From positions 1 to 45,568 of the forward strand of contig CAXXVK010000007.1 of the NCBI GenBank assembly GCA_963676915.2: a stretch of DNA of 45,568 bases. The letters run 5' to 3'. Within the stretch, counting starts at the first letter, position 1. The number at the start of each line of letters is the position of its first letter. Below are positions 23,297 through 34,906 of this stretch, one piece after another. A program made the position numbers and the translations under genes. This stretch comes from Myxococcota bacterium (lineage in GTDB: Bacteria > Myxococcota_A > SURF-8 > G963663525). A model generated the notes under the pieces. The model was not told the DNA's origin and searched no databases. It was given only the letters and a program-made list of their open reading frames with translations.

Positions 23297-26200
23297 ATGA
23301 GGAATCCGCTTAGGTATTCAACGAAAAGTTTGGTCTGGCTTGCGATCCTTCTAATGACGGTCCCGTGGGGCTGTTCCGAGGAAGGCGTTGGAAGTCCGGG
23401 CGGGGGACTGCTCGACGATGCGGTCAAAGACATGGAGGGGATGAGTCCAATTCCCCAGCCGGGGTATCCGGTCAATGAAAAGCTCCGTGGTCTCGGCACG
23501 TTACGCCTGACCAACACCGCCATCCAGTTCCTGGAGGACAACGGCACCGATATCATCATGCAAGCGCTGGGTGACAGCCTTGTGATCGATGATCTGGAAT
23601 ACGATGTTCCGGTTCTCGGCACGTTATCTCTGAATCAGCCGATTACCATCGACCTACAGTCGATTCATATCGATCTGACGCCTTCGGATATTCTTACGGC
23701 GACAATCACCGCCGCTCCTCTGTTCGTGGATGCCGCTATCGGGGAATGCCAATACACGATCCGAACGAACAATAACCTTGTGATTCCGGTAGAAATCCAG
23801 TTGAAGATCGATCAATATTCCTATCGGCTGTACCCGAAGGTTGAAGTGCTGGACATCCCGTTGGGCGATGTCGATATCCAGTACACCGGATGCACTGGTA
23901 ACTTTTTGGAGTGCCTGGGATGCTGGGTCGAGGGTGGAATCGCCGAGTTGGCGGACAATCTGCTTCCGGCCATCAGCGGCTTGATTCAGGAACCGGTGAA
24001 AAACCTGATCGACGAGCAATTGGAAGGAATGCTTTGTGGTCGATGCGAAGGGGACAGCGATTGCCGCACATTGCATGGTTACACCTGCAAAGACGGGAAC
24101 ATCTGCCGTCTGGCCGACGGAACCTGCGACTGGATGTTGATCGGTCTGGAACAAGCCTTCGACCTTGGACCGATGCTGGCAGGTTTCATGCCTGGTCTGG
24201 CCGCCGAGTTGTGGTTCAGTCTCGCCGCAGGATATCGGGTGGATATTCCGCAGGATGAATCCTATCTCGATCTCAATCTGTTCGGTGGCACGACGCTTCC
24301 CTGTCGGCTCTGTCCCAGCGGTTCGGATGATGAATGTGGCTCGGATTACAGTTGCTTCAATTACGTTTGCCGCGCCAGTCCCACCGACTTGTGCGAGCTT
24401 GATCCGGCCAAAAGCGAACCTTGCGTCGATCCGATGTATTTCGGTGGCAACCCTGACCTTCCACGTACGGACATCGGCCGCACGGTTCCGGGAACCGGCG
24501 AAGCCTACATGGTGGGTATCGCGCTGCGCGAGGAAATGCTCGACCAGTTGGGGTACACGCTCTACAACTCGGCCCTTTTGTGCATGACACTCGATAGCAA
24601 CATGCCGAGCGTGGGTGGATATCTCGATCTGATCTGGACGTTTTACGGCGGTATTTCGAACCTCGTTCCCGGCGGCAATCCTCCGACGGCGATCCAGCTT
24701 CAGCCTTCTCCGCCGCTGGATGATAGCAACCCGATCGAATTCACCATCGGTCAGAACACCTGGCATTACGAAGACGAGGAAGGCACGGACTACGGCCACA
24801 CCTGCCCGGACAGCGAAGAAATCGCCTGTACGGCCAAGGTGGACGAACCGCTGCTTCGTATCGACATCAACGGCCTTCAGCTTCACATGTACGCCATGGT
24901 GGACGAGCGCTGGTATCGGGCCTTTACACTCAAGATGGATATCGGACTACCCCTTGCCATCGATCTGACCGACGGTATGCTGCTGCCGATCATCGACATC
25001 GGTGGATTGGAAATCAAAAATATTACAGCCCCTTATTCCGCCCTGGATCTGGATCTCGCCGCTACGGCGGACAATCTCGGTGGCTTGTTAGGCGCGGTTA
25101 TGCCGATGCTCAGTAATCTGGTTCCTGCCATGGAACCGATGGAAATCCCGATGGCTTTCGACTTCAATCAGGATCACGTTACCGATATCCGGTTGGTTAT
25201 CAACGCATTGAAGGGAATCGACGCCAAAGATACCATGGAAACCCAGTTCGGTGCCTTGGGAATCTACGCTTCCATGGAAGTACCTTCGGGTGCCCGTACC
25301 GTGGAACAGACCACGGTGGTGGATACCGAAATCGTCAAGATCGAACGCCGCACCATGCCGACCACCGAAGAATTGCGCCAGGGACAATGGCCGTCGTTGG
25401 TTCTGCGGGTGGATGGCTCGGACCTCGACTTCGACAACGACAACCTCGAATACCAGTACCGCGTCGATCAGACGGCCTGGTCGATGTGGATTCCCAGCAA
25501 CCTTCTGGCGATTCAAAGTCCCATGTTGGCCGCTCAGGGTGAACACACCATTTACGTAAGAGCACGAGACCGACGCGACGGAAGAAGCTGGGACCGCCTG
25601 CCCGCCGAAATCACAGTGCGCACGGACTGGACGGCTCCCGAGATCCGCGTCATGCAGGACAACAACATCGTCCGATTCGACGTTCATGACAACACCAGCA
25701 ACGCTTCCGGTATCGTGACCCGTTGGCGCGTTGCTGGAGACAGTACCTGGAGTGAGGCGAATCAAGTGAAACTCGATGCCCTTAACCTGCCGGTGACGTT
25801 GGAAGTCAGTGCGACCGACGAAAGCGGTAACGAAGCGATCGTTACGAAAGAAGTGAAAGAAAAACTGCCTCGGGAAATTCTGCAGACCGGTCAGCAGACC
25901 CAGGATATATTGTCTCCCGAAGACGCCAAGCGGATGCTCGAAGGTCGCGTAGGCTGTTCGGGAACCGATGCCAAAGCGGCCTGGTGGATGCTCTTCCTGT
26001 TGCTGCCGCTGTTCCTGCTTCGAAGAAAACCTCAGGATATCAAAGCCTTAGTACTTCTTCCCGCTTTGCTGCTTCTTGTCACCGCTTGTGACAGTGGAAG
26101 CACCGGAGCTCCCTGCACTGAAAATTCGGATTGCGGGGTAGGGGAGATGTGTCAGGCTGGCGTCTGCGTGCCGGAGAGCATCGAATGCCTCAGCAACGAC

Positions 26201-28691
26201 GATTGCCATCGCTGTGACATGTGTCAGTCCGGGCAATGCGTCGCTCGTGGCGATGTCTGCGAATGCTCGGAAGATGAACCCGAGTGCTGGGACGGCTACG
26301 TTTGCGACACCGAACAGGGAATCTGTGTGGTGGACGAAGGCGGACAAGACTGCGTAGACGGTGAATGCCCCTGTACGGATGGCGAATGCCCACCGTGCTA
26401 CTACTGCTCGAAAGCTACGGATACCTGCAAGGTACAGCTTTGCGATCCTGAGTGTACCAATTCCGAAGAACTGGGAATGCTACCCTGTTACGACCAGAAA
26501 GAGCATAAGGGCGAACCCGACACCTGCGCCGTTTGTACGATCCGTGAAGGTCGTCCCAACGAGTGTGTCGCACCGCAATGCGAATCGGACGAAGACTGTT
26601 CTTGCCGTGTCTGCCCCGATGGCGATCCGCCTGCCGTGTGTACCTCCACCAAGGAATGCGTATGCCGCAAGCCTTGCGGTGGCGTTTGTCCGGGTGAAGA
26701 GGAAGGCATCGGCGGTTGCTGCCTGCCGACGGATACCTGTTATACCTGCAAGGGCTGGTGCGAAGATGTCGAATGCCCGCCGTGGCAGGAAGCCGGCGGT
26801 TGCGATCCAACCGATACCGACGAATGCAACGTCCCGCCGTACAATCTTCCGCGCTGGACGCTGTGCGACAACTATGAGCCGGATAGCTGCTCTTACAGCG
26901 GTCCCGGATCCGCCGACCACTCGACCTGTGCCTGCCGGGACAAGCCTCCTCTAGATGTCGGCAAGGTTGGACGTTTCCATTCCATGACCGAATACCAGAC
27001 CGAAGTTAACGGCAACCCTGTCAACCGGCTGTTCTTTGCTTCTTACAACGACACCTACGGCGATCTGGTTGTTGCGGACGTGATGCGTAATCAGGCGATG
27101 TTCGGCCAGGGTGGATGACGAAGACTGGGTGTTTTTGGATGGTATTCCCGACGAAGTGCCAACTGCTGAACCGACGGGACCGCGTGGCGGTGTCGCCCAG
27201 ACAGGAGATGATGTCGGTCGCTATACCTCGGTGGTCGTCACCTCCGAAGGTCATCCTCGGATCGTGTACCAGGATGTGGAAAACGGCGATTTGATTCTGA
27301 TGTGGCACGATGGTCCTGAAGTTGTGGTCGAACCGGACGGCGACGTGGACGAAGAAGCCGAAGATGAAGCGACCGAAGAGGAAGCCGAGGAGGAAACCGG
27401 CGGATCGCGCAACCTGCGGGATGAAGAAGAGGAAACCCAGATCGTCTGGAAACGCATGGTGATCGATAGTGCCGGAGATACCGGATATTACAACAAAATC
27501 TATCTCGACGAGCAGGAACGCCCGATCATTCTGTACATGACGGCTACTACGGAGGACCGTAAATACAGCCAGTTGAAAATCGCCATGTCCACAACGCCGA
27601 ATCTATCTCTTGATAGCCTGAAGGACGACTGGATCATCGGTGTTCTCGACCAGGTACGAATTGCCGGAGATGCCTGTGCTTCCGTAGAAGGCGGATGCGA
27701 AGGCGACAACCAGATTTGTGTGTGGGATTATTCACTCGATGATGATCGTTGCATCACCAACAATGACGTGGGTAACGATTGTATGCCGGAATGCGATGAA
27801 GATACGGCCGTGTGTGTCGATGGATACTGCCTGCCGGTTCGCACGGCGACCGGTCCTACCGGACTGGCTCGCGGAACGGGTATTCGTCCGCAGATGACGA
27901 TTTTCCCGGATGTCCAGCCCATGAATTACGGCAAAGTCTGGATTACCTACTATCACCACGACACCTTCACTGCCGGGCAGTGGGCCACCCATGGAAATCT
28001 GATGCGTATTCGCCTGGATTCGATGTTTACGCCGGAATCCTTGGCCGCTGCGATCGATCAGGACACCCGCCGCGTGGTGGGTTGGGTGCCGCAGATCATA
28101 CTCGGTACGCCTTCGGCCTGGGCGGATGGCGATATCGGACGTTTCTACAGCATGGATGTGGCCAACACAGGCGCTTTCGTGATGTCGTTCTACAACGCCG
28201 ATATCAACCGTGTTGGGATCTGGTACGACATGAATCTTGGCGGCGGATTGCAGGCCTATTACATGGACGACGGTTTCCGACGTGATGATGAAGACAACTT
28301 CTACCGGGCGAAAGTCGGTGCAGACACGCAGGTGCGGCTGGTTTCCGGTGAAATCATGTTGGCGTACCAGAATCAGACCGATGGTCAATTGTTGCTCAAA
28401 TCATTCGGTGGATTGAGCCTCGATAGCTACAACCCGAACCTGTACACCTGCGACGAGCCGGACAATCCCTGCGTGGTTCCGATGCGCTACTATCCCGAAA
28501 CGGTTCTTGGAGGAACGCCGGTTCATGACGATCATGGTCACAACCACGGCTTCTTCATCAACTTCCTCAAAATCGAAGATGGAGCTTCGGGAATCATCTC
28601 TTCTTACTTCCTGCATCTGAACAACCAGAATGTCGATGAGGGAGAAGAAGCGGAACCCCATGAATTCAAAGTGGAACTCTTCATTCCATAG
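23297..28691 (+). CDS. Giant Cys-rich lipoprotein/polyprotein: LBP/BPI-like region, Ig-like region, internal MYXO-CTERM-like signal, second lipoprotein signal, Cys-rich repeats, beta-propeller-like domain; frameshift at about 27110
   Basis: ORFs 23183-27118 and 27111-28691 join as FGQVDDEDW if one G is removed from CAGGGTG. Lipobox PWG-C; GCS...LFLLLPLFLLRRK; LLLLVTA-C; repeated VGR(F/Y).S...Y blades. Confidence 0.8.
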
Positions 28692-29482: not shown

Positions 29483-32400
29483 TTACTGCTCGACACTCAT
29501 GCAAACCGCCGGAGGGCCGGGATCGCAGGTGCCACCAAACGAAGCGCAATCTTCGCTGGTCTGCCAAGAACCACCGATGCAAATCTCCAAGATATTTCCA
29601 TTACACTGGGTTTCATCCGTGGAACATTCGGTGGGTAGTTCCGTTGATGTGTCGTCTTCCACTTCGATTTCGATTTCCGCTTCCCACTCCTCTTCACCTT
29701 CCTCGACCTCGATTTCGTCGTCCATATCGCCATCGACAGGCACACAATAGGGATCACTCGCGGTGGAGCGCGTCACCGCCATCGGTTGATAGCATTCCAT
29801 TTGCGAGTCGGCGCAGTCCTCGATCACCATCCATTCACCGCTGTTGCACAATTCGATTCGCGTCCCATTGCAGCGCATCTGGCTGTCTTCACAGGGAAAA
29901 ATGATTTCATCCTCGATTTCGTCTTCCATTTCGTTTTCGATCTCTTCTTCGTTTGCGACTTCAGTTTCGTTTTCGATCTCTTCTTCGTTTGCGACTTCAG
30001 TTTCGTTTTCGATCTCTGTCTCATTTGAGACTTCCGCTTCGTCCTCCAGGTCGCCATCGGCAGGCATTTCGCAGTAAGCTCCTCCGCCCTCGGTCACGCA
30101 GACCTGCTCCATGGCGTTGCAGTCCATGTAAAGCGTCCACTTGGTGCCGTCCAGACACTCTTGGGCCTCGTTGTCCATGCAACGATACGCGCCGGACTCG
30201 CAAACGATGGGCAGGCAGTCGGGATAATTCGTGTAACCTTCGGAACATAAACAATCGTAGGTGTCGGTTCCGGTGATTTCGCAGAGATTCCGGTTGTCTT
30301 CGGTGCAGGGATTGGGATTGCAGGCATCGATATATTCCTCGCATACTCCGTCGTAATCCACGTATCCCGTGTTGCAATGGCACTGATACAGTCCTTCACC
30401 CAGAACTTCGCAGAGATTCTGGTTGGTTTCGACACAAGGATTGATCGCGCAGGGATCGACAATGCAGGCCCCCTCGAACTCAATGGTTCCAACATCGCAC
30501 AGGCACTCGTACGTCTCGTCGCTTGTTACTTCACACACCGTCCGGTTGGGTTCCAGACAGGGGTTGGGGTCGCAGGGGTCCGGTTTGCAAATACCCAGTG
30601 CGCCGGGTTGTGTTCCGGAGACCGAGCACTTCGAGCCGGGACAGCACAACGGCATCCCGTAGCCGCAATACTCGGGTTCGGTGCATTCCTCGCAGACGAA
30701 GCACATCGGGGCGGAGTCTCTGTCACAGCACGCCGCATCCGACGTACAAGACGGACAATGGAGGATGCATTCCCCGAAATCTTGATCGCAGACGTATCCC
30801 GCCGGGCAACTGGTCGGGCAGGAATACTCCTGTTCGGGACGGCAGCGGCCATCCTCTTTGCAAACCAGCAGGCCGGGACAATCTTCGTTCAGGCTGCAAT
30901 TCGGGTAACATTCGCCTTTGGAATGAACGGGTGGGATTTCGCAATGCTCTCCCTCTGCACATTCTTCGTCGTTTTCACAGGGATTCAACAACGCATTGTA
31001 AACACAACTCCGATAATTGGGGTCGCTCGAATCTCTGGTACACAGGTAGTTTTCAGGGCAGCCGAAAATCAGACAGTTTTCATCGCAAATTCCCAGTTTG
31101 GACGGGCCGAAGAAGTAGTGACAGAACACTTCGCCTTCGCAATCATAATCATCGTAACATTGCCCGGTTTGCACGATGCGCGTGCATTCCGGGGGATTCT
31201 CGTAGCCGTCCAGGCATTGTTCGCAATAATCTCCGGCCGCTCCTTCCTGGTAACAGTCACAAGTACCGTCTATCGGATCGCATTCCCCCAAACCCTCGCA
31301 AGGGTCCGGGTCGCATAAATCCATGTCTTTACACATATATCCCGTATGGGGACCACAGTCGAAGCCATCCGGGCAACTCGGGCATTCCAAGGCAACGCAT
31401 TCGCCGATATCCGAGCAGACCTGACCTTGTTCGCAGGGCGGGTCGCAGCATTCTCCGCAGGTCCATTCCTCCCCCGATACGAAGTTGCAGCATTGACCGG
31501 CACTGCACAACGGATCGCAGAATTCACAGCGTTCGGTCACTTGATTGCAGATATCGTATTCGCAGCCCAGCTCGGTGCAGTCGTCCAGGCACCAATTGTT
31601 CGGGTCGCAGGACTGGCCTTCGGGACACGTGAATTCTGCGCCGCATTGCACGTAGGAAACGTCCCATTCCTCGAATTCTTCGATGTCGCCATCCGTTTCG
31701 ATCTCGTCCTCCAGATCGTCGTCGGGAACGATATCGACGCATTCGGCCCATTCGCCATAATCCTCGCAAACCCGGTCCGATAACGCACAGTCTTCCTCGA
31801 ACTCCCATTGTCCCATTTCGTTACAGAATTCCGTCGAGCTTTCGTAGCAGCGCATGGTTCCGGGATCGCAAACCGCTTCGGCCATACACAATTTCCATCC
31901 TATGGCGATCAGGCTGGCCGCATCCGGCATGGCAACGACCGGAACCCGGTCGGCGGGAACCACCGAACCGTCCACCAGCGTCAGGGCCAGCACGTCGAGC
32001 GGTCCCGGCGCCATGTCGATCAGGGCGAAACGACCGTCGGTGTTGGTAACCGTTTGAGTCACCGAGGGAAGGAGGTTGCCCATCTCCCCGTTGAAATAGC
32101 TCGATTTTGTGGAACGAACCGATGCCCCCACCGTGGCGTTGCGAATAGCGTAGCGGTTGCAGTCCATCACTTCGCCAACCACCATCGATCGGCCTTCTTC
32201 GATCCCCTGAGCAATGCCTGCCGTGAGGGGATAGAGATCCCAGTCGGTTTCGCTCAAACCCGCCACGAATAGAGGCGCTTCCGAGAGTCCCGCGAACTGT
32301 TCGGAAGAAAGGTAGGTATTGAAAAAGTAGCTTTCCCGGATCGACAGGTCGAGATTGTATACTTTGAACACTAGCCAGCGATCCAAAGGCAGGTTTTCGA

Positions 32401-34906
32401 TGGTAAACGGACAACTTCCGTGCTCTTCGACGGTGGAATTGACCCGGACGACGTTACGCAACGGTTCGGTGAACGTCGTGTTTTCCACGCCGCTTTCGTC
32501 GTATTGCGCGTAGACTTCCACGAAGGCTCCCTCACAAAGCGAAGGATTGCCGATCACGAAAAGTTCGGCGTTACCGGTAATGGTTTCTTCCGTGGCAAGA
32601 TTGTCAACCGGGCGGTCGGTGATACCTTCGACGTTGACGGGAACCGGCTGCTGCTCGTCGTCCACTACCGGACTGTACATGCCTTCCATATCGCCCGATT
32701 CGCTGTTGTAAGTCGCGTTTTCCCAGTACAATTTTCCTTCGGTGATCGGTTCGTCGATGCAGATTCCCATGGAGGTATCGGGCCAATCCAGGTAGCAGTA
32801 TCCTTCCGGGCAATCCGCAGGAACCAGACACAACCCGCTGTCGGAGGGGAAAGATTCCTCTTCCTCGAATTCAACGTCACTTTCTTCATCGCCATCGATG
32901 GGCAGATCCACACAAAGGGCGGACTCTTCCTCGACCTGACAGATTTGATCCGAATCGGTGCAATCCTGAATCACGATCCACGAACCGCCCGTCGAGTCGC
33001 ATTTGACAAGTACGGTTTCCTGGCAATCGGTGACGCCCGGCGTGCAGACTTCGCCTTCCTCTTCCTCGTCGCCATCTATTTCACTGGGTTGCTCGCAGAC
33101 GGCCGCGTCACCGATCAGTACGCAGGGACGGTTGAACTCGGCACAGTCATAGGTGCTTTCCCAGACGGCTCCGTTTTCGGAACAGACTTCGATAACCGAG
33201 CCGGAACAGCGGCTCTGCCCCGAATCGCAAATGACTTCGACTTCTTCTTCAATGTCGCCATCGGAGGGAATGATGGTGTCGCAGTAGGCTTCGTCTTCCG
33301 ACTCGCGGCAGATCATCTGTTGGTCGGAGCATTCCTTCTCGGTGACCCACTCGCTGCCGTCGTCGCTACAACGCTGTACACGGGTCAGCAGGCAGCGCAT
33401 GGCGTCCGGTGTACAGACCTGATCCAGCGTGCAGTCCGGGTAGCCGGAATATCCCAGCGCACACAGTCCGCAATTGGGCCCGGTATAGCCTTCGTTGCAT
33501 TCGCAATCCCCCGTGGTTTCGGCACAGGTTCCATGCTCGTTGCACGTTACCGTTTCACCGACACAATTCCCACTGTCGCAGCGATCGTTGGTGGTGCAGA
33601 GATTGTTGTCATCGCAGCTTGCGAGATTGTCGGACGACCAGTTTTCGGCGTCCAGCGTCGGAGAACAAACGAGGCAGGCGTTGCCTTCCGGAGTGTCGTT
33701 CCGGCTGTAACAGGTCTGATCGATCAGGCAGGCATCGATTTCCAGCCGGTTGACACATTCGCCGTTGAGTGGGTTGCAGAGATCCCGCGTGCAGTCGTAG
33801 TCGTCGGAGCAGTCTTTTTCCGTGTATTTACATGTGGTTCCGTCGAGTTCGTCGGTGGTGCAGGCGTTGAGGTCGTCGCAGTCCGGCGTTTCCGAAACCA
33901 GCCTCACGGTCCAACTTCGATAAACGCCCGGCGCATTGTCGCCGGATTGCAGGGCGATCATCAACACCGCCGCGATGTTGTTGGCCTCGAATTCGGGCGA
34001 CAACACGCTGGAAACCACCACCATGGAACCGTCTTCGTACGAAAACGCATCCGCTTCGATGGTCACGTAACCTTCGAGCATCGGAATACCGAAAATCACG
34101 TTGGCTTTCATATCGGGGAAAACGAATTCCGTATAGATATTCAGGGTGAATCCTTCGCCGGGGGAAAGCGTTTCCGGTCCGTCTATTTCGAGGATCTGCG
34201 GAGCGGCGTCGCTACGGTCGGAGGCCGGTTTGATCGCCGAGGTAAATCTTCCGCCTTCCACGCCCTGAGCCAGTTCCGAAGCGCGCTCCACGATGGGGTC
34301 TAGGTCCGTAACATCGAGTTGCCAAGGCACGAACGCGCCGACGTTGCCTTCCACGTCCTCGAAAGCGAAGTACAGGTTGTAATCTTGCATTCCGCGAAGG
34401 GTTTCATCGACTTCGAGCAATCCGAACAGTTCGGCCCAGAAGCCGTCTTCGTCGTACGATAAATTCACGGGTACCCGCAAATAGCCGTTCATGCCGTCCA
34501 TTTTGATCAGCACGGCTACCACGTCGAAGGTCGGGTCATCGAGAACCTTGGCGAGGATTCGTTTTTCGGCGACAGCTTTCTTCTTTGTTGTCTGCGCCAG
34601 TTTCAACTTGGTGGTGAAGCTTTGGCCAAGTGTAAGCTCGGTTTCAGCCTTCATTTTATCGATTTGAGGAGCTTCGTTGGGGTTGGCGTTGCCTTCGGGC
34701 GCTTCTCCTTCCATCAACGTGCTGCCCTCGAACTTGAGAGACCCGGCCATGCGTTCGTTGAGTGCGTCGGAGATGTTTTCCACGTTGCTCTTGCCGCCTT
34801 TGGAACAGGAAATTCCGGCGGTCAGTATGATCGAGACGAAAACGAGGAGGACACCTCGAAGAATCGTTTTCCCTGTGAATTTATCGGTAAAAGTATTGCA
34901 AAACAT
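29483..34906 (-). CDS. Giant (1807 aa) Cys-rich surface lipoprotein / putative adhesin with EGF-like, laminin-EGF-like and other Cys repeats
   Basis: Lipobox AGIS-C; duplicated N-terminal APQI domain; CDD.N.CTTD repeats; C.PNPC EGF-like repeats; seven 6-Cys modules, six followed by acidic DGD-type linkers; GEVMDC...TNTDGRFALID region. Confidence 0.88.
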   Translation of the reverse strand: MFCNTFTDKFTGKTILRGVLLVFVSIILTAGISCSKGGKSNVENISDALNERMAGSLKFEGSTLMEGEAPEGNANPNEAPQIDKMKAETELTLGQSFTTKLKLAQTTKKKAVAEKRILAKVLDDPTFDVVAVLIKMDGMNGYLRVPVNLSYDEDGFWAELFGLLEVDETLRGMQDYNLYFAFEDVEGNVGAFVPWQLDVTDLDPIVERASELAQGVEGGRFTSAIKPASDRSDAAPQILEIDGPETLSPGEGFTLNIYTEFVFPDMKANVIFGIPMLEGYVTIEADAFSYEDGSMVVVSSVLSPEFEANNIAAVLMIALQSGDNAPGVYRSWTVRLVSETPDCDDLNACTTDELDGTTCKYTEKDCSDDYDCTRDLCNPLNGECVNRLEIDACLIDQTCYSRNDTPEGNACLVCSPTLDAENWSSDNLASCDDNNLCTTNDRCDSGNCVGETVTCNEHGTCAETTGDCECNEGYTGPNCGLCALGYSGYPDCTLDQVCTPDAMRCLLTRVQRCSDDGSEWVTEKECSDQQMICRESEDEAYCDTIIPSDGDIEEEVEVICDSGQSRCSGSVIEVCSENGAVWESTYDCAEFNRPCVLIGDAAVCEQPSEIDGDEEEEGEVCTPGVTDCQETVLVKCDSTGGSWIVIQDCTDSDQICQVEEESALCVDLPIDGDEESDVEFEEEESFPSDSGLCLVPADCPEGYCYLDWPDTSMGICIDEPITEGKLYWENATYNSESGDMEGMYSPVVDDEQQPVPVNVEGITDRPVDNLATEETITGNAELFVIGNPSLCEGAFVEVYAQYDESGVENTTFTEPLRNVVRVNSTVEEHGSCPFTIENLPLDRWLVFKVYNLDLSIRESYFFNTYLSSEQFAGLSEAPLFVAGLSETDWDLYPLTAGIAQGIEEGRSMVVGEVMDCNRYAIRNATVGASVRSTKSSYFNGEMGNLLPSVTQTVTNTDGRFALIDMAPGPLDVLALTLVDGSVVPADRVPVVAMPDAASLIAIGWKLCMAEAVCDPGTMRCYESSTEFCNEMGQWEFEEDCALSDRVCEDYGEWAECVDIVPDDDLEDEIETDGDIEEFEEWDVSYVQCGAEFTCPEGQSCDPNNWCLDDCTELGCEYDICNQVTERCEFCDPLCSAGQCCNFVSGEEWTCGECCDPPCEQGQVCSDIGECVALECPSCPDGFDCGPHTGYMCKDMDLCDPDPCEGLGECDPIDGTCDCYQEGAAGDYCEQCLDGYENPPECTRIVQTGQCYDDYDCEGEVFCHYFFGPSKLGICDENCLIFGCPENYLCTRDSSDPNYRSCVYNALLNPCENDEECAEGEHCEIPPVHSKGECYPNCSLNEDCPGLLVCKEDGRCRPEQEYSCPTSCPAGYVCDQDFGECILHCPSCTSDAACCDRDSAPMCFVCEECTEPEYCGYGMPLCCPGSKCSVSGTQPGALGICKPDPCDPNPCLEPNRTVCEVTSDETYECLCDVGTIEFEGACIVDPCAINPCVETNQNLCEVLGEGLYQCHCNTGYVDYDGVCEEYIDACNPNPCTEDNRNLCEITGTDTYDCLCSEGYTNYPDCLPIVCESGAYRCMDNEAQECLDGTKWTLYMDCNAMEQVCVTEGGGAYCEMPADGDLEDEAEVSNETEIENETEVANEEEIENETEVANEEEIENEMEDEIEDEIIFPCEDSQMRCNGTRIELCNSGEWMVIEDCADSQMECYQPMAVTRSTASDPYCVPVDGDMDDEIEVEEGEEEWEAEIEIEVEDDTSTELPTECSTDETQCNGNILEICIGGSWQTSEDCASFGGTCDPGPPAVCMSVEQ
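29930..30016 (-). repeat. 36-bp in-frame tandem repeat (NETEVANEEEIE), 2 full copies plus a partial copy
   Basis: TTCGTTTTCGATCTCTTCTTCGTTTGCGACTTCAGT repeated directly. Confidence 0.85.

Follow-up and report, generated by a model that had tools for sequence, protein, structure and literature searches.

A candidate envelope polyprotein of Myxococcota in which a MYXO-CTERM-type tag runs directly into a lipoprotein signal

A gene at 23297-28691 of a DNA stretch from a Myxococcota bacterium (assembly GCA_963676915.2, contig CAXXVK010000007.1) encodes a protein in which an internal sorting tag of the MYXO-CTERM type runs, in frame and with no stop codon, into a lipoprotein signal. The stretch, called the window below, is the whole 45,568 nucleotides analysed, read on the forward strand. 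Judged by sequence similarity, the gene belongs to a large unnamed family of Myxococcota. We consider it probable that this one gene encodes an envelope polyprotein of about 1800 amino acids (aa), which a myxosortase together with the lipoprotein enzymes Lgt and LspA would resolve into two lipid-anchored partners, referred to here as part A and part B.

Results

Three anchoring signals in one reading frame

The translation begins with a signal peptide, MRNPLRYSTKSLVWLAILLMTVPWG-C, whose Cys26 is encoded at 23372-23374. Far downstream lies the internal tag GCSGTDAKAAWWMLFLLLPLFLLRRK (25952-26029), with Cys887 encoded at 25955-25957. Its layout, GCSGTDAK-AAWWMLFLLLPLFLL-RRK, is that of the tripartite MYXO-CTERM signal: a Cys motif, a hydrophobic helix, and a basic cluster. 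Reading of the DNA over 25900-26160 finds no stop after the tag; instead, PQDIKALVLLPALLLLVTACDSG runs on in the same frame to Cys931 (26087-26089), the cysteine of a second signal, PQDIKALVLLPALLLLVTA-C-DSG. The second signal consists of an n-region RRKPQDIK, an h-region ALVLLPALLLLVTA, and the Cys, and conforms to the type II layout, in which a positive n-region and an h-region of 7-22 residues precede [LVI][ASTVI][GAS]-C. Cys887 and Cys931 are 44 residues apart, and the region comprises 15 hydrophobic residues, a loop of 8 residues with a net charge of +3, and 14 hydrophobic residues with a V-T-A-C end. Such geometry fits a helical hairpin whose basic loop would lie in the cytoplasm. Neither signal of the hairpin is where its class is normally found. 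About 886 codons of the gene still follow the tag, which therefore does not sit at the extreme C-terminus, and the lipobox cysteine is residue 931 rather than N-terminal. An earlier note on this DNA, made from the letters alone, had described three signals in one frame with no stop between the internal tag and the lipoprotein signal, and the translation bears this out.

No in-frame ATG, GTG, or TTG occurs between the RRK and the h-region, which leaves part B no route to a separate signal peptide through internal initiation; we rejected an internal start on this ground. Among the 102 family hairpins described below, 31 have a Met between the first basic residue and eight residues before the lipobox Cys.

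The hairpin is kept across a family of long proteins

In a search of 40 relatives, the long open frames that span the junction measured 1424-1896 aa. In the window's protein and 16 such frames from 14 genomes (17 of 17), Gly-Cys, helix, R(R/K), helix, and lipobox Cys follow one another in one frame. The Gly and Cys of the tag and the lipobox Cys are each invariant in a 16-row alignment (16/16); the earlier note had singled out the two cysteines, at 25955 and 26087, as the residues that homologs should keep. The ortholog in a genome of the same genus (G001) starts at the same Met as the window's protein. Near the start, 14 of the 16 homologous open frames carry a hydrophobic stretch ending in [GAS]-C, one has a signal-peptidase-I-like AHA-G, and one (G019) is ambiguous.

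A profile built from the 16-row alignment and run on 1.84 billion cluster representatives returned 3576 matches at E<=1e-3 and 568 at E<=1e-30. Among the best 149 representatives, the window's own protein excluded, the hairpin occurs in 100 by pattern and in 14 more by eye, 20 end in the tag, and the other 15 are fragments or giant Ig-repeat proteins matching only the immunoglobulin (Ig)-like part. A lipobox core occurs within the first 70 aa in 96 of the 149. A stricter script extracted 102 hairpins for residue counts; a looser hairpin pattern was dropped, having placed false upstream sites in several proteins. The first Cys is preceded by G in 89 of the 102, 99 have G, A, or S just before the second Cys, and 92 agree with a lipobox core rule of the PROSITE type. 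The distance from Cys to Cys ranges from 37 to 77 residues, with a median of 47. Within the window's own genome, an internal-hairpin pattern matched four of 9237 open frames of at least 150 aa, and only the window's match looks genuine; the other three, short frames with no family or signal context, were set aside as spurious-looking. The hairpin feature is well beyond chance.

A scan of one genome per species gave 49 loci, of which 41 are fused with the hairpin (37 by pattern, 4 by eye), seven are stand-alone part-B genes, and one is a fragment at a contig end. All loci with specific labels come from Myxococcota or from metagenome-assembled genomes labelled Deltaproteobacteria; three carry broader labels (Proteobacteria or bacterium). 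The taxa represented include Bradymonadia, Polyangia, Haliangium, Kofleriaceae, Nannocystineae, and Microvenator. Matches at E<=1e-20 occur in 119 of 401 genomes sampled across the phylum. A word-indexed protein search with part A, which scored 7999 candidates of 501-1595 aa, found only the window's own protein; it is uninformative because most relatives are long (many above 1595 aa) or distant.

Some members of the family depart from the usual form. Genome G040 has three paralogs (L020 at C220, L017 at C189), two of them in tandem. L021 (G019:C217) is a variant of 1896 aa in which the hairpin lies much further along, with its first Cys at residue 1403. The residue that follows the internal lipobox Cys is Asp in the window (26090-26092); across the 102 hairpins it is G in 31, S in 29, D in 18, and K in 9. 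In E. coli, an Asp directly after the lipobox Cys retains lipoproteins in the inner membrane, although its meaning in this phylum may differ.

Natural split genes place both signals at true termini

The 20 representatives that end in the tag are short (491-950 aa) and correspond to part A alone. Their stop codons fall 0-12 residues past an RRRR-type tail, so that Gly-Cys, helix, and RRRR stand at the extreme C-terminus, as in ordinary MYXO-CTERM proteins. The stand-alone part-B genes (7 of 49 loci) open with a lipoprotein signal, and its Cys lines up with the internal lipobox Cys of fused proteins; in stand-alone and split B genes alike the lipobox is N-terminal, unlike the window's at residue 931.

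Five complete split-A loci were drawn from the phylum scan. In three of them gene B lies directly downstream of gene A, and the start of B overlaps the stop of A: TGATG in L077 (G309) and L076 (G018), and GTGA in L075 (G219). Gene B of all three adjacent pairs begins with a canonical signal ending in G-C. A single frame slip at such a stop/start overlap converts a split pair to a fused hairpin, or the reverse. The earlier note had asked whether homologs keep the hairpin fused or divide it between two genes; most keep it, and a minority are split exactly there, with overlapping stop and start.

FastTree was applied to the 400 residues before the tag in 118 proteins (100 fused, 18 split), with a midpoint root. 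Left out were 29 proteins not picked up as fused, comprising missed fused proteins, unrelated giants, and fragments, together with 2 short split fragments. The tree places 17 of the 18 split forms in one clade (support 92) nested among fused forms, and the fewest changes required is 2. Fission in one lineage is suggested, and only suggested, because the root of the tree is just a midpoint.

The gene just upstream of the stand-alone B gene in L053 (4604-5824) looks Lgt-like, scoring 68.2 bits on TIGR00544 against a cut-off of 118.9. The upstream genes in L068 and L070 have N-terminal sequence similar to that of the L053 gene.

Sorting tags and processing enzymes encoded in the genome

The MYXO-CTERM model TIGR03901 and the model GC_trans_RRR, both hidden Markov models, were applied to the tags. 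When the protein is cut at RRK, the resulting fragment reaches 23.9 bits on Synerg-CTERM, above the cut-off of 22.5. The window's tag ranks 6th of 15 MYXO-CTERM matches in its genome, of which four pass the cut-off of 20. Among homologs, two internal tags pass with 21.4 and 20.7 bits and a third, at 17.2, falls short. The terminal tags of split homologs do not exceed these (17.1, 17.0, and no score), although one of them passes GC_trans_RRR with 18.7 against 15.85. A pattern for C-terminal Cys-helix-RR tails matches 32 proteins encoded there, and about 28 of these look convincing. By these measures the internal tag broadly resembles the MYXO-CTERM-type tags found elsewhere in the genome. The RefSeq name of the Lujinxingia vulgaris homolog (WP_146973426.1) is "MYXO-CTERM sorting domain-containing protein".

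Two CPBP-domain genes were found in the genome. One gene of the myxosortase family, the cognate enzyme class that the earlier note had proposed to look for, is present at C43:268860-269162, with 133.6 bits on the core model Mrt_core (NF040914; cut-off 100). LspA is present (100.4 bits, cut-off 73.95), as is Lgt (165.3 bits, cut-off 118.9), and two GspD secretin genes score above cut-off. The sole myxosortase-family gene (L024:1468-2091, minus strand) lies directly downstream of hisS. It fails the MrtP, MrtC, and MrtX full-length models while passing the core model, and so may represent a further architectural type. MrtP is the Bradymonadales type according to excerpts of the Haft preprint (10.1101/2023.06.07.544157).

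Three weaker Lgt-like loci accompany Lgt. The four loci are C21:5020-5739, C33:30970-31776, C62:3912-4427, and C31:60649-61374; two pass the cut-off, C33 only when two adjacent stretches are summed. Such additional Lgt paralogs deserve attention as possible candidates for lipidating the MYXO-CTERM cysteine. On C16 of the same genome (L025:1-1815), a 604-aa frame encodes PrmA, the ribosomal protein L11 methyltransferase (191.3 bits, over cut-off), followed at the C-terminus by a domain of the CPBP protease type.

Predicted folds and a predicted contact between parts A and B

An AlphaFold model of the window's part A (862 aa, 49-row alignment) has a predicted local distance difference test score (pLDDT) of 81.7 and a predicted template modelling score (pTM) of 0.79. 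Foldseek against PDB places nearest to it BPI (1bp1, E 7.1e-15, TM score 0.60 by target), LBP (4m4d, 1.1e-14), and CETP (2obd, 3.3e-14), with OrfX/P47-type TULIP proteins ranked after these. The predicted fold thus agrees with the two tandem barrels of TULIP proteins, at E 7.1e-15 to 3.9e-14 and TM 0.42-0.62 by target; TM by query is 0.26-0.36, low because the query is longer. The last two domains resemble FN3 tandems such as 3lpw_B and 5myb_A (TM 0.39-0.41 by target). For part B, the G001 ortholog was modelled (867 aa, 44 rows; pLDDT 80.7, pTM 0.73). About 290 Cys-rich residues are followed by a propeller nearest to PLL/PHL lectins (E 1.7e-9, TM 0.61-0.68 by target). Since propellers of glycosidases and sialidases come close behind in score, the match does not point to any one propeller family. 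The window's own protein has a weak match to Myxo_Cys_RPT (16.2 bits, cut-off 25). The earlier note had guessed at the same folds from sequence, a BPI/LBP-like plus Ig protein and a Cys-rich plus beta-propeller protein, and the models point the same way.

These resemblances are of fold. Pfam searches on both frames found no family at E<=1, LBP_BPI_CETP included, NCBIfam on the whole protein gave sub-threshold matches only, and the nearest ESM Atlas clusters are labelled "hypothetical protein" and share no common Pfam family.

The split pair of G219 was modelled as a complex, with the second barrel and Ig-like domains of A (448 aa) and mature B (477 aa) as input. The pair scored 0.77 (median of three runs), versus 0.01 for the best of 3 controls. 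In calibration, 58 of 80 solved complexes and 2 of 110 mismatched pairs scored at least as high, counts that hold only roughly here since our own alignments carry the same fused proteins for A and for B. At least 56% of contacts recur between runs, with a partner pLDDT of 84 or more. The confident contacts lie between residues 131-142 and 179-183 of the A piece, in the second barrel, and the propeller of B. The model supports a predicted binding of A and B to each other, and a one-to-one partnership, in keeping with the 1:1 stoichiometry proposed in the earlier note, fits this interface.

A frame break downstream of the hairpin

The earlier note had treated 23297-28691 as one frame and missed a break. 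The first frame, 23297-27118, stops at 27116-27118, and the protein continues in the open reading frame 27111-28691. By a blastn DNA alignment, the window has one extra base near 27103-27112, within the propeller part, relative to the G001 ortholog, which is a single uninterrupted frame of 1802 aa with 81% identity; the 526 codons past the break remain open.

One public run (0.94 of sampled words; contigs only) covers the stretch and is probably the source sample, at a depth of about 3.7; no RNA data set was listed as containing it. Its contig of 9272 bases has 0 differences over 23297-27110, where it ends, so the stop-free junction at 26020-26090, part of which (26020-26050) the earlier note had wanted checked in reads, is reproduced in an independent assembly. 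Positions 27111-27196 are without cover, and depth drops from 3.7 to about 2. The frame break thus coincides with the end of the sole public contig over the gene and with the drop in depth, and is most likely an assembly error. Table 1 lists the features.

Table 1. Features of the hairpin gene in the window.
Feature	Position	Strand	Evidence
Start codon and N-terminal signal peptide, Cys26 at its end	23297..23374	+	Translation, homolog N-termini
Part A, predicted BPI/LBP/CETP-like (TULIP) two-barrel module, mature residues ~24-640	23441..25291	+	AlphaFold, Foldseek
Part A, two predicted Ig/FN3-like beta-sandwich domains, mature residues ~650-830	25319..25861	+	Model secondary structure, Foldseek
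Internal MYXO-CTERM-type tag: Gly-Cys, short linker, 15-residue helix, RRK	25952..26029	+	Layout, model scores, homologs
Remainder of loop (PQDIK), h-region ALVLLPALLLLVTA, lipobox V-T-A-C	26030..26089	+	Sequence, homolog conservation
Part B: Cys-rich region and start of propeller, to frame stop 27116-27118	26087..27118	+	Many invariant Cys, G001 model
Frame break, one base more than same-genus ortholog	27103..27112	+	blastn alignment
Part B continued in other frame: rest of 7-bladed-type beta-propeller, including stop codon	27111..28691	+	Continuous in G001

Neighboring genes

The genes upstream are shared with the same-genus genome only, so the neighbors give no functional clue, and Pfam and NCBIfam scans of the neighbor genes returned nothing relevant. 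The convergent neighbor at 29483-34906 (minus strand) encodes an 1807-aa Cys-rich lipoprotein, with a signal ending in AGISC, a teneurin-like EGF match, long acidic repeats, and no internal hairpin. It has no connection with the hairpin.

Discussion

Proposed processing

The processing we propose follows the established pathway of Sec, Lgt, and LspA, combined with the MYXO-CTERM working model in those sections of PMC11980579 that treat it. The N-terminal signal peptide would carry part A, with its BPI/LBP-like and two Ig-like domains, across the inner membrane. The first helix of the 45-residue hairpin would act as a stop-transfer sequence, leaving RRK in the cytoplasm, and the second helix would restart export, now of part B with its Cys-rich region and propeller. 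Serving also as a lipoprotein signal peptide, the second helix would have Cys931 lipidated by Lgt and be cut by LspA just before that residue, which would free B as a lipoprotein. The first helix and Gly-Cys would serve as a MYXO-CTERM-type tag, cut at Cys887 by the myxosortase-family protease to free A, presumably with a lipid on the Cys. A and B would afterwards pair one to one. The earlier note had proposed such a cut into two separately anchored proteins, and each of its suggested checks that was run turned out in favor of that proposal. Both cleavages, the lipidation, the final location, and any binding of lipid or glycan are what we infer; a surface location would be by analogy with Myxococcus.

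A more far-reaching version can be advanced only tentatively. It holds that this is an ancient, phylum-wide envelope polyprotein, one Sec substrate cut at the 45-residue hairpin by myxosortase and by Lgt/LspA, yielding a BPI-like product lipid-anchored at both ends and a lipoprotein propeller. The two would re-associate 1:1 at the surface, perhaps to recognize or extract outer-membrane lipid or lipopolysaccharide of other cells in these predatory or social bacteria.

Several observations weigh against the processing proposed above. On the MYXO-CTERM model the window's tag scores 16.9 bits as a fragment and 18.4 in a six-frame scan of the genome, under the cut-off of 20; it does pass on the sister model Synerg-CTERM. 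The myxosortase is short (207-227 aa) and recognized by the core model only, falling below the full-length cut-offs of MrtP (176.9 against 250) and MrtC (160.7 against 195). At the N-terminus, where the note had read a lipobox, signal peptide and Cys are present, and the box P-W-G-C is atypical at -2 and -3; the G001 ortholog has a canonical F-A-G-G-C. The lipobox core rule fails in 10 of the 102 hairpins. No B gene follows in two of the five split-A loci (L078, L080), and no A gene precedes any of the seven stand-alone B genes, so A and B can exist apart. In the alignments for the complex, A and B draw on the same fused proteins. Read support is limited to a single run, at depth 2-4, which probably represents the source data.

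Alternative readings

If only the lipoprotein site were used, LspA would free B, A would be held in the inner membrane by the uncut hairpin, and Gly-Cys would have some other role or none. The sub-cut-off score of the window's tag, the atypical, short myxosortase, and the N-terminal Cys anchor that part A already possesses would all be in keeping with this. It leaves unexplained the invariant Gly-Cys (16/16; G before Cys in 89 of 102), the split homologs that end in the tag as ordinary MYXO-CTERM proteins do, and the presence in the genome of about 30 such tags together with one myxosortase-family gene, and we regard it as unlikely.

We give still less credence to a hairpin that is never cut, a plain two-helix anchor joining two periplasmic domains of one 1800-aa protein. 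Both cleavages are predicted ones, and the predicted contact of A with B would be equally possible within a single chain. A plain anchor, however, needs neither an invariant Gly-Cys nor a lipobox Cys preceded by G, A, or S (99/102), the second helix has just 14 residues, the length of a signal peptide, and the split genes put both signals at true termini.

That only the myxosortase-type tag is used, freeing A and leaving B anchored by an uncleaved signal helix, is very improbable: we found no specific support for it, the lipobox is conserved and opens the stand-alone B genes as well, and Lgt and LspA are encoded. Loss of a stop and start between two genes through sequencing or assembly error, which a depth of only about 3.7 and a likely error 1 kb downstream might bring to mind, is refuted by conservation of the same open junction in the same-genus genome, in complete chromosomes (G003, G007), and in more than 100 cluster representatives, and the independent assembly shows 0 differences.

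Relation to known systems

Processing at both sites would draw on systems already known. With MYXO-CTERM and myxosortase, as exemplified by TraA and MrtX of Myxococcus xanthus and MrtP of Bradymonadales, the window's gene shares the tripartite tag of invariant Cys, helix, and Arg-rich tail, and its genome shares a CPBP protease of the myxosortase family and many C-terminally tagged proteins. It differs in the placing of the tag, some 900 residues short of the end and continuous with a second signal peptide, and in that the tagged part also bears an N-terminal Cys box. According to PMC11980579, sorting tags function when internal, cleavage by MrtX comes after lipidation, which is presumed and may be due to Lgt, and MrtX processes a TraA tag in E. 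coli. The same source presents MXAN_5598, the one such protein it discusses, as having an internal MYXO-CTERM, thought to reflect a fusion of two genes, with the N-terminal part proposed to be processed and surface-anchored. MXAN_5598 is like the window's protein in its internal tag, but it is a different protein, an adhesin followed by an outer-membrane barrel and OmpA domain, and its discussion in PMC11980579 mentions no following lipoprotein signal, family-wide conservation, or split counterparts.

As in ordinary lipoprotein maturation, the second signal has a positive n-region, a short h-region, and V-T-A-C, and both Lgt and LspA are encoded; the difference is that the signal is internal, as the second half of a hairpin. 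In archaea, Abdul Halim et al. in 2017 reportedly found that an ArtA substrate with a non-terminal PGF tripartite signal is processed, and PMC11980579 cites this study together with Navarre and Schneewind 1994 on internal sorting tags. The ArtA case likewise has a sorting tag processed away from the C-terminus, in a different enzyme family and a different domain of life. Envelope polyproteins of viruses, namely the glycoprotein precursors of flaviviruses, alphaviruses, and bunyaviruses, have a stop-transfer anchor, a short cytoplasmic loop, and an internal signal that restarts export, and are cut in the membrane. They give two anchored partners in equal amounts, in eukaryotic hosts, with signal peptidase I making the cuts. 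The hairpin logic is the same, whereas here the cuts would be made by two lipid-linked sorting systems of bacteria. Likeness to BPI/LBP/CETP (TULIP) proteins and PLL/PHL lectins is at the level of predicted fold only (E about 1e-14 for A and about 1e-9 for B); there is no sequence-family match, and identity is 8-12%.

A literature search found neither the family nor the hairpin of tag plus lipoprotein signal described, though supplementary tables of MYXO-CTERM proteins, which the search did not cover, may list members. No paper came up on internal lipoboxes or lipoprotein signals, or on polyproteins of bacteria processed by signal peptidase II, and nothing relevant on BPI-like or TULIP proteins with Bradymonadales or MYXO-CTERM. 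While the components are known, neither this family nor the fusion of those components into a conserved processing cassette appears to have been described.

Significance

To our knowledge, a bacterial gene for a secreted protein nearly always yields a single protein; polyproteins cut in the membrane are a viral hallmark. Here a C-terminal sorting tag is fused back to back with an N-terminal lipoprotein signal and kept so across deep divergence, and natural split versions indicate what the two products should be. The family, without a Pfam or NCBIfam model, pairs a predicted BPI/LBP-like fold, rare in bacteria as far as we know, with a propeller. Annotation pipelines name its members "hypothetical" or "MYXO-CTERM sorting domain-containing protein" and leave the second product unflagged. 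Cultured carriers exist among Lujinxingia species (L. vulgaris WP_146973426.1, L. sediminis WP_127780922.1). The family offers a test bed for the action of myxosortase on internal tags, for the threading of very large lipoproteins across the membrane, and for whether Lgt lipidates the tag Cys, a question raised in the text of PMC11980579 that concerns lipidation.

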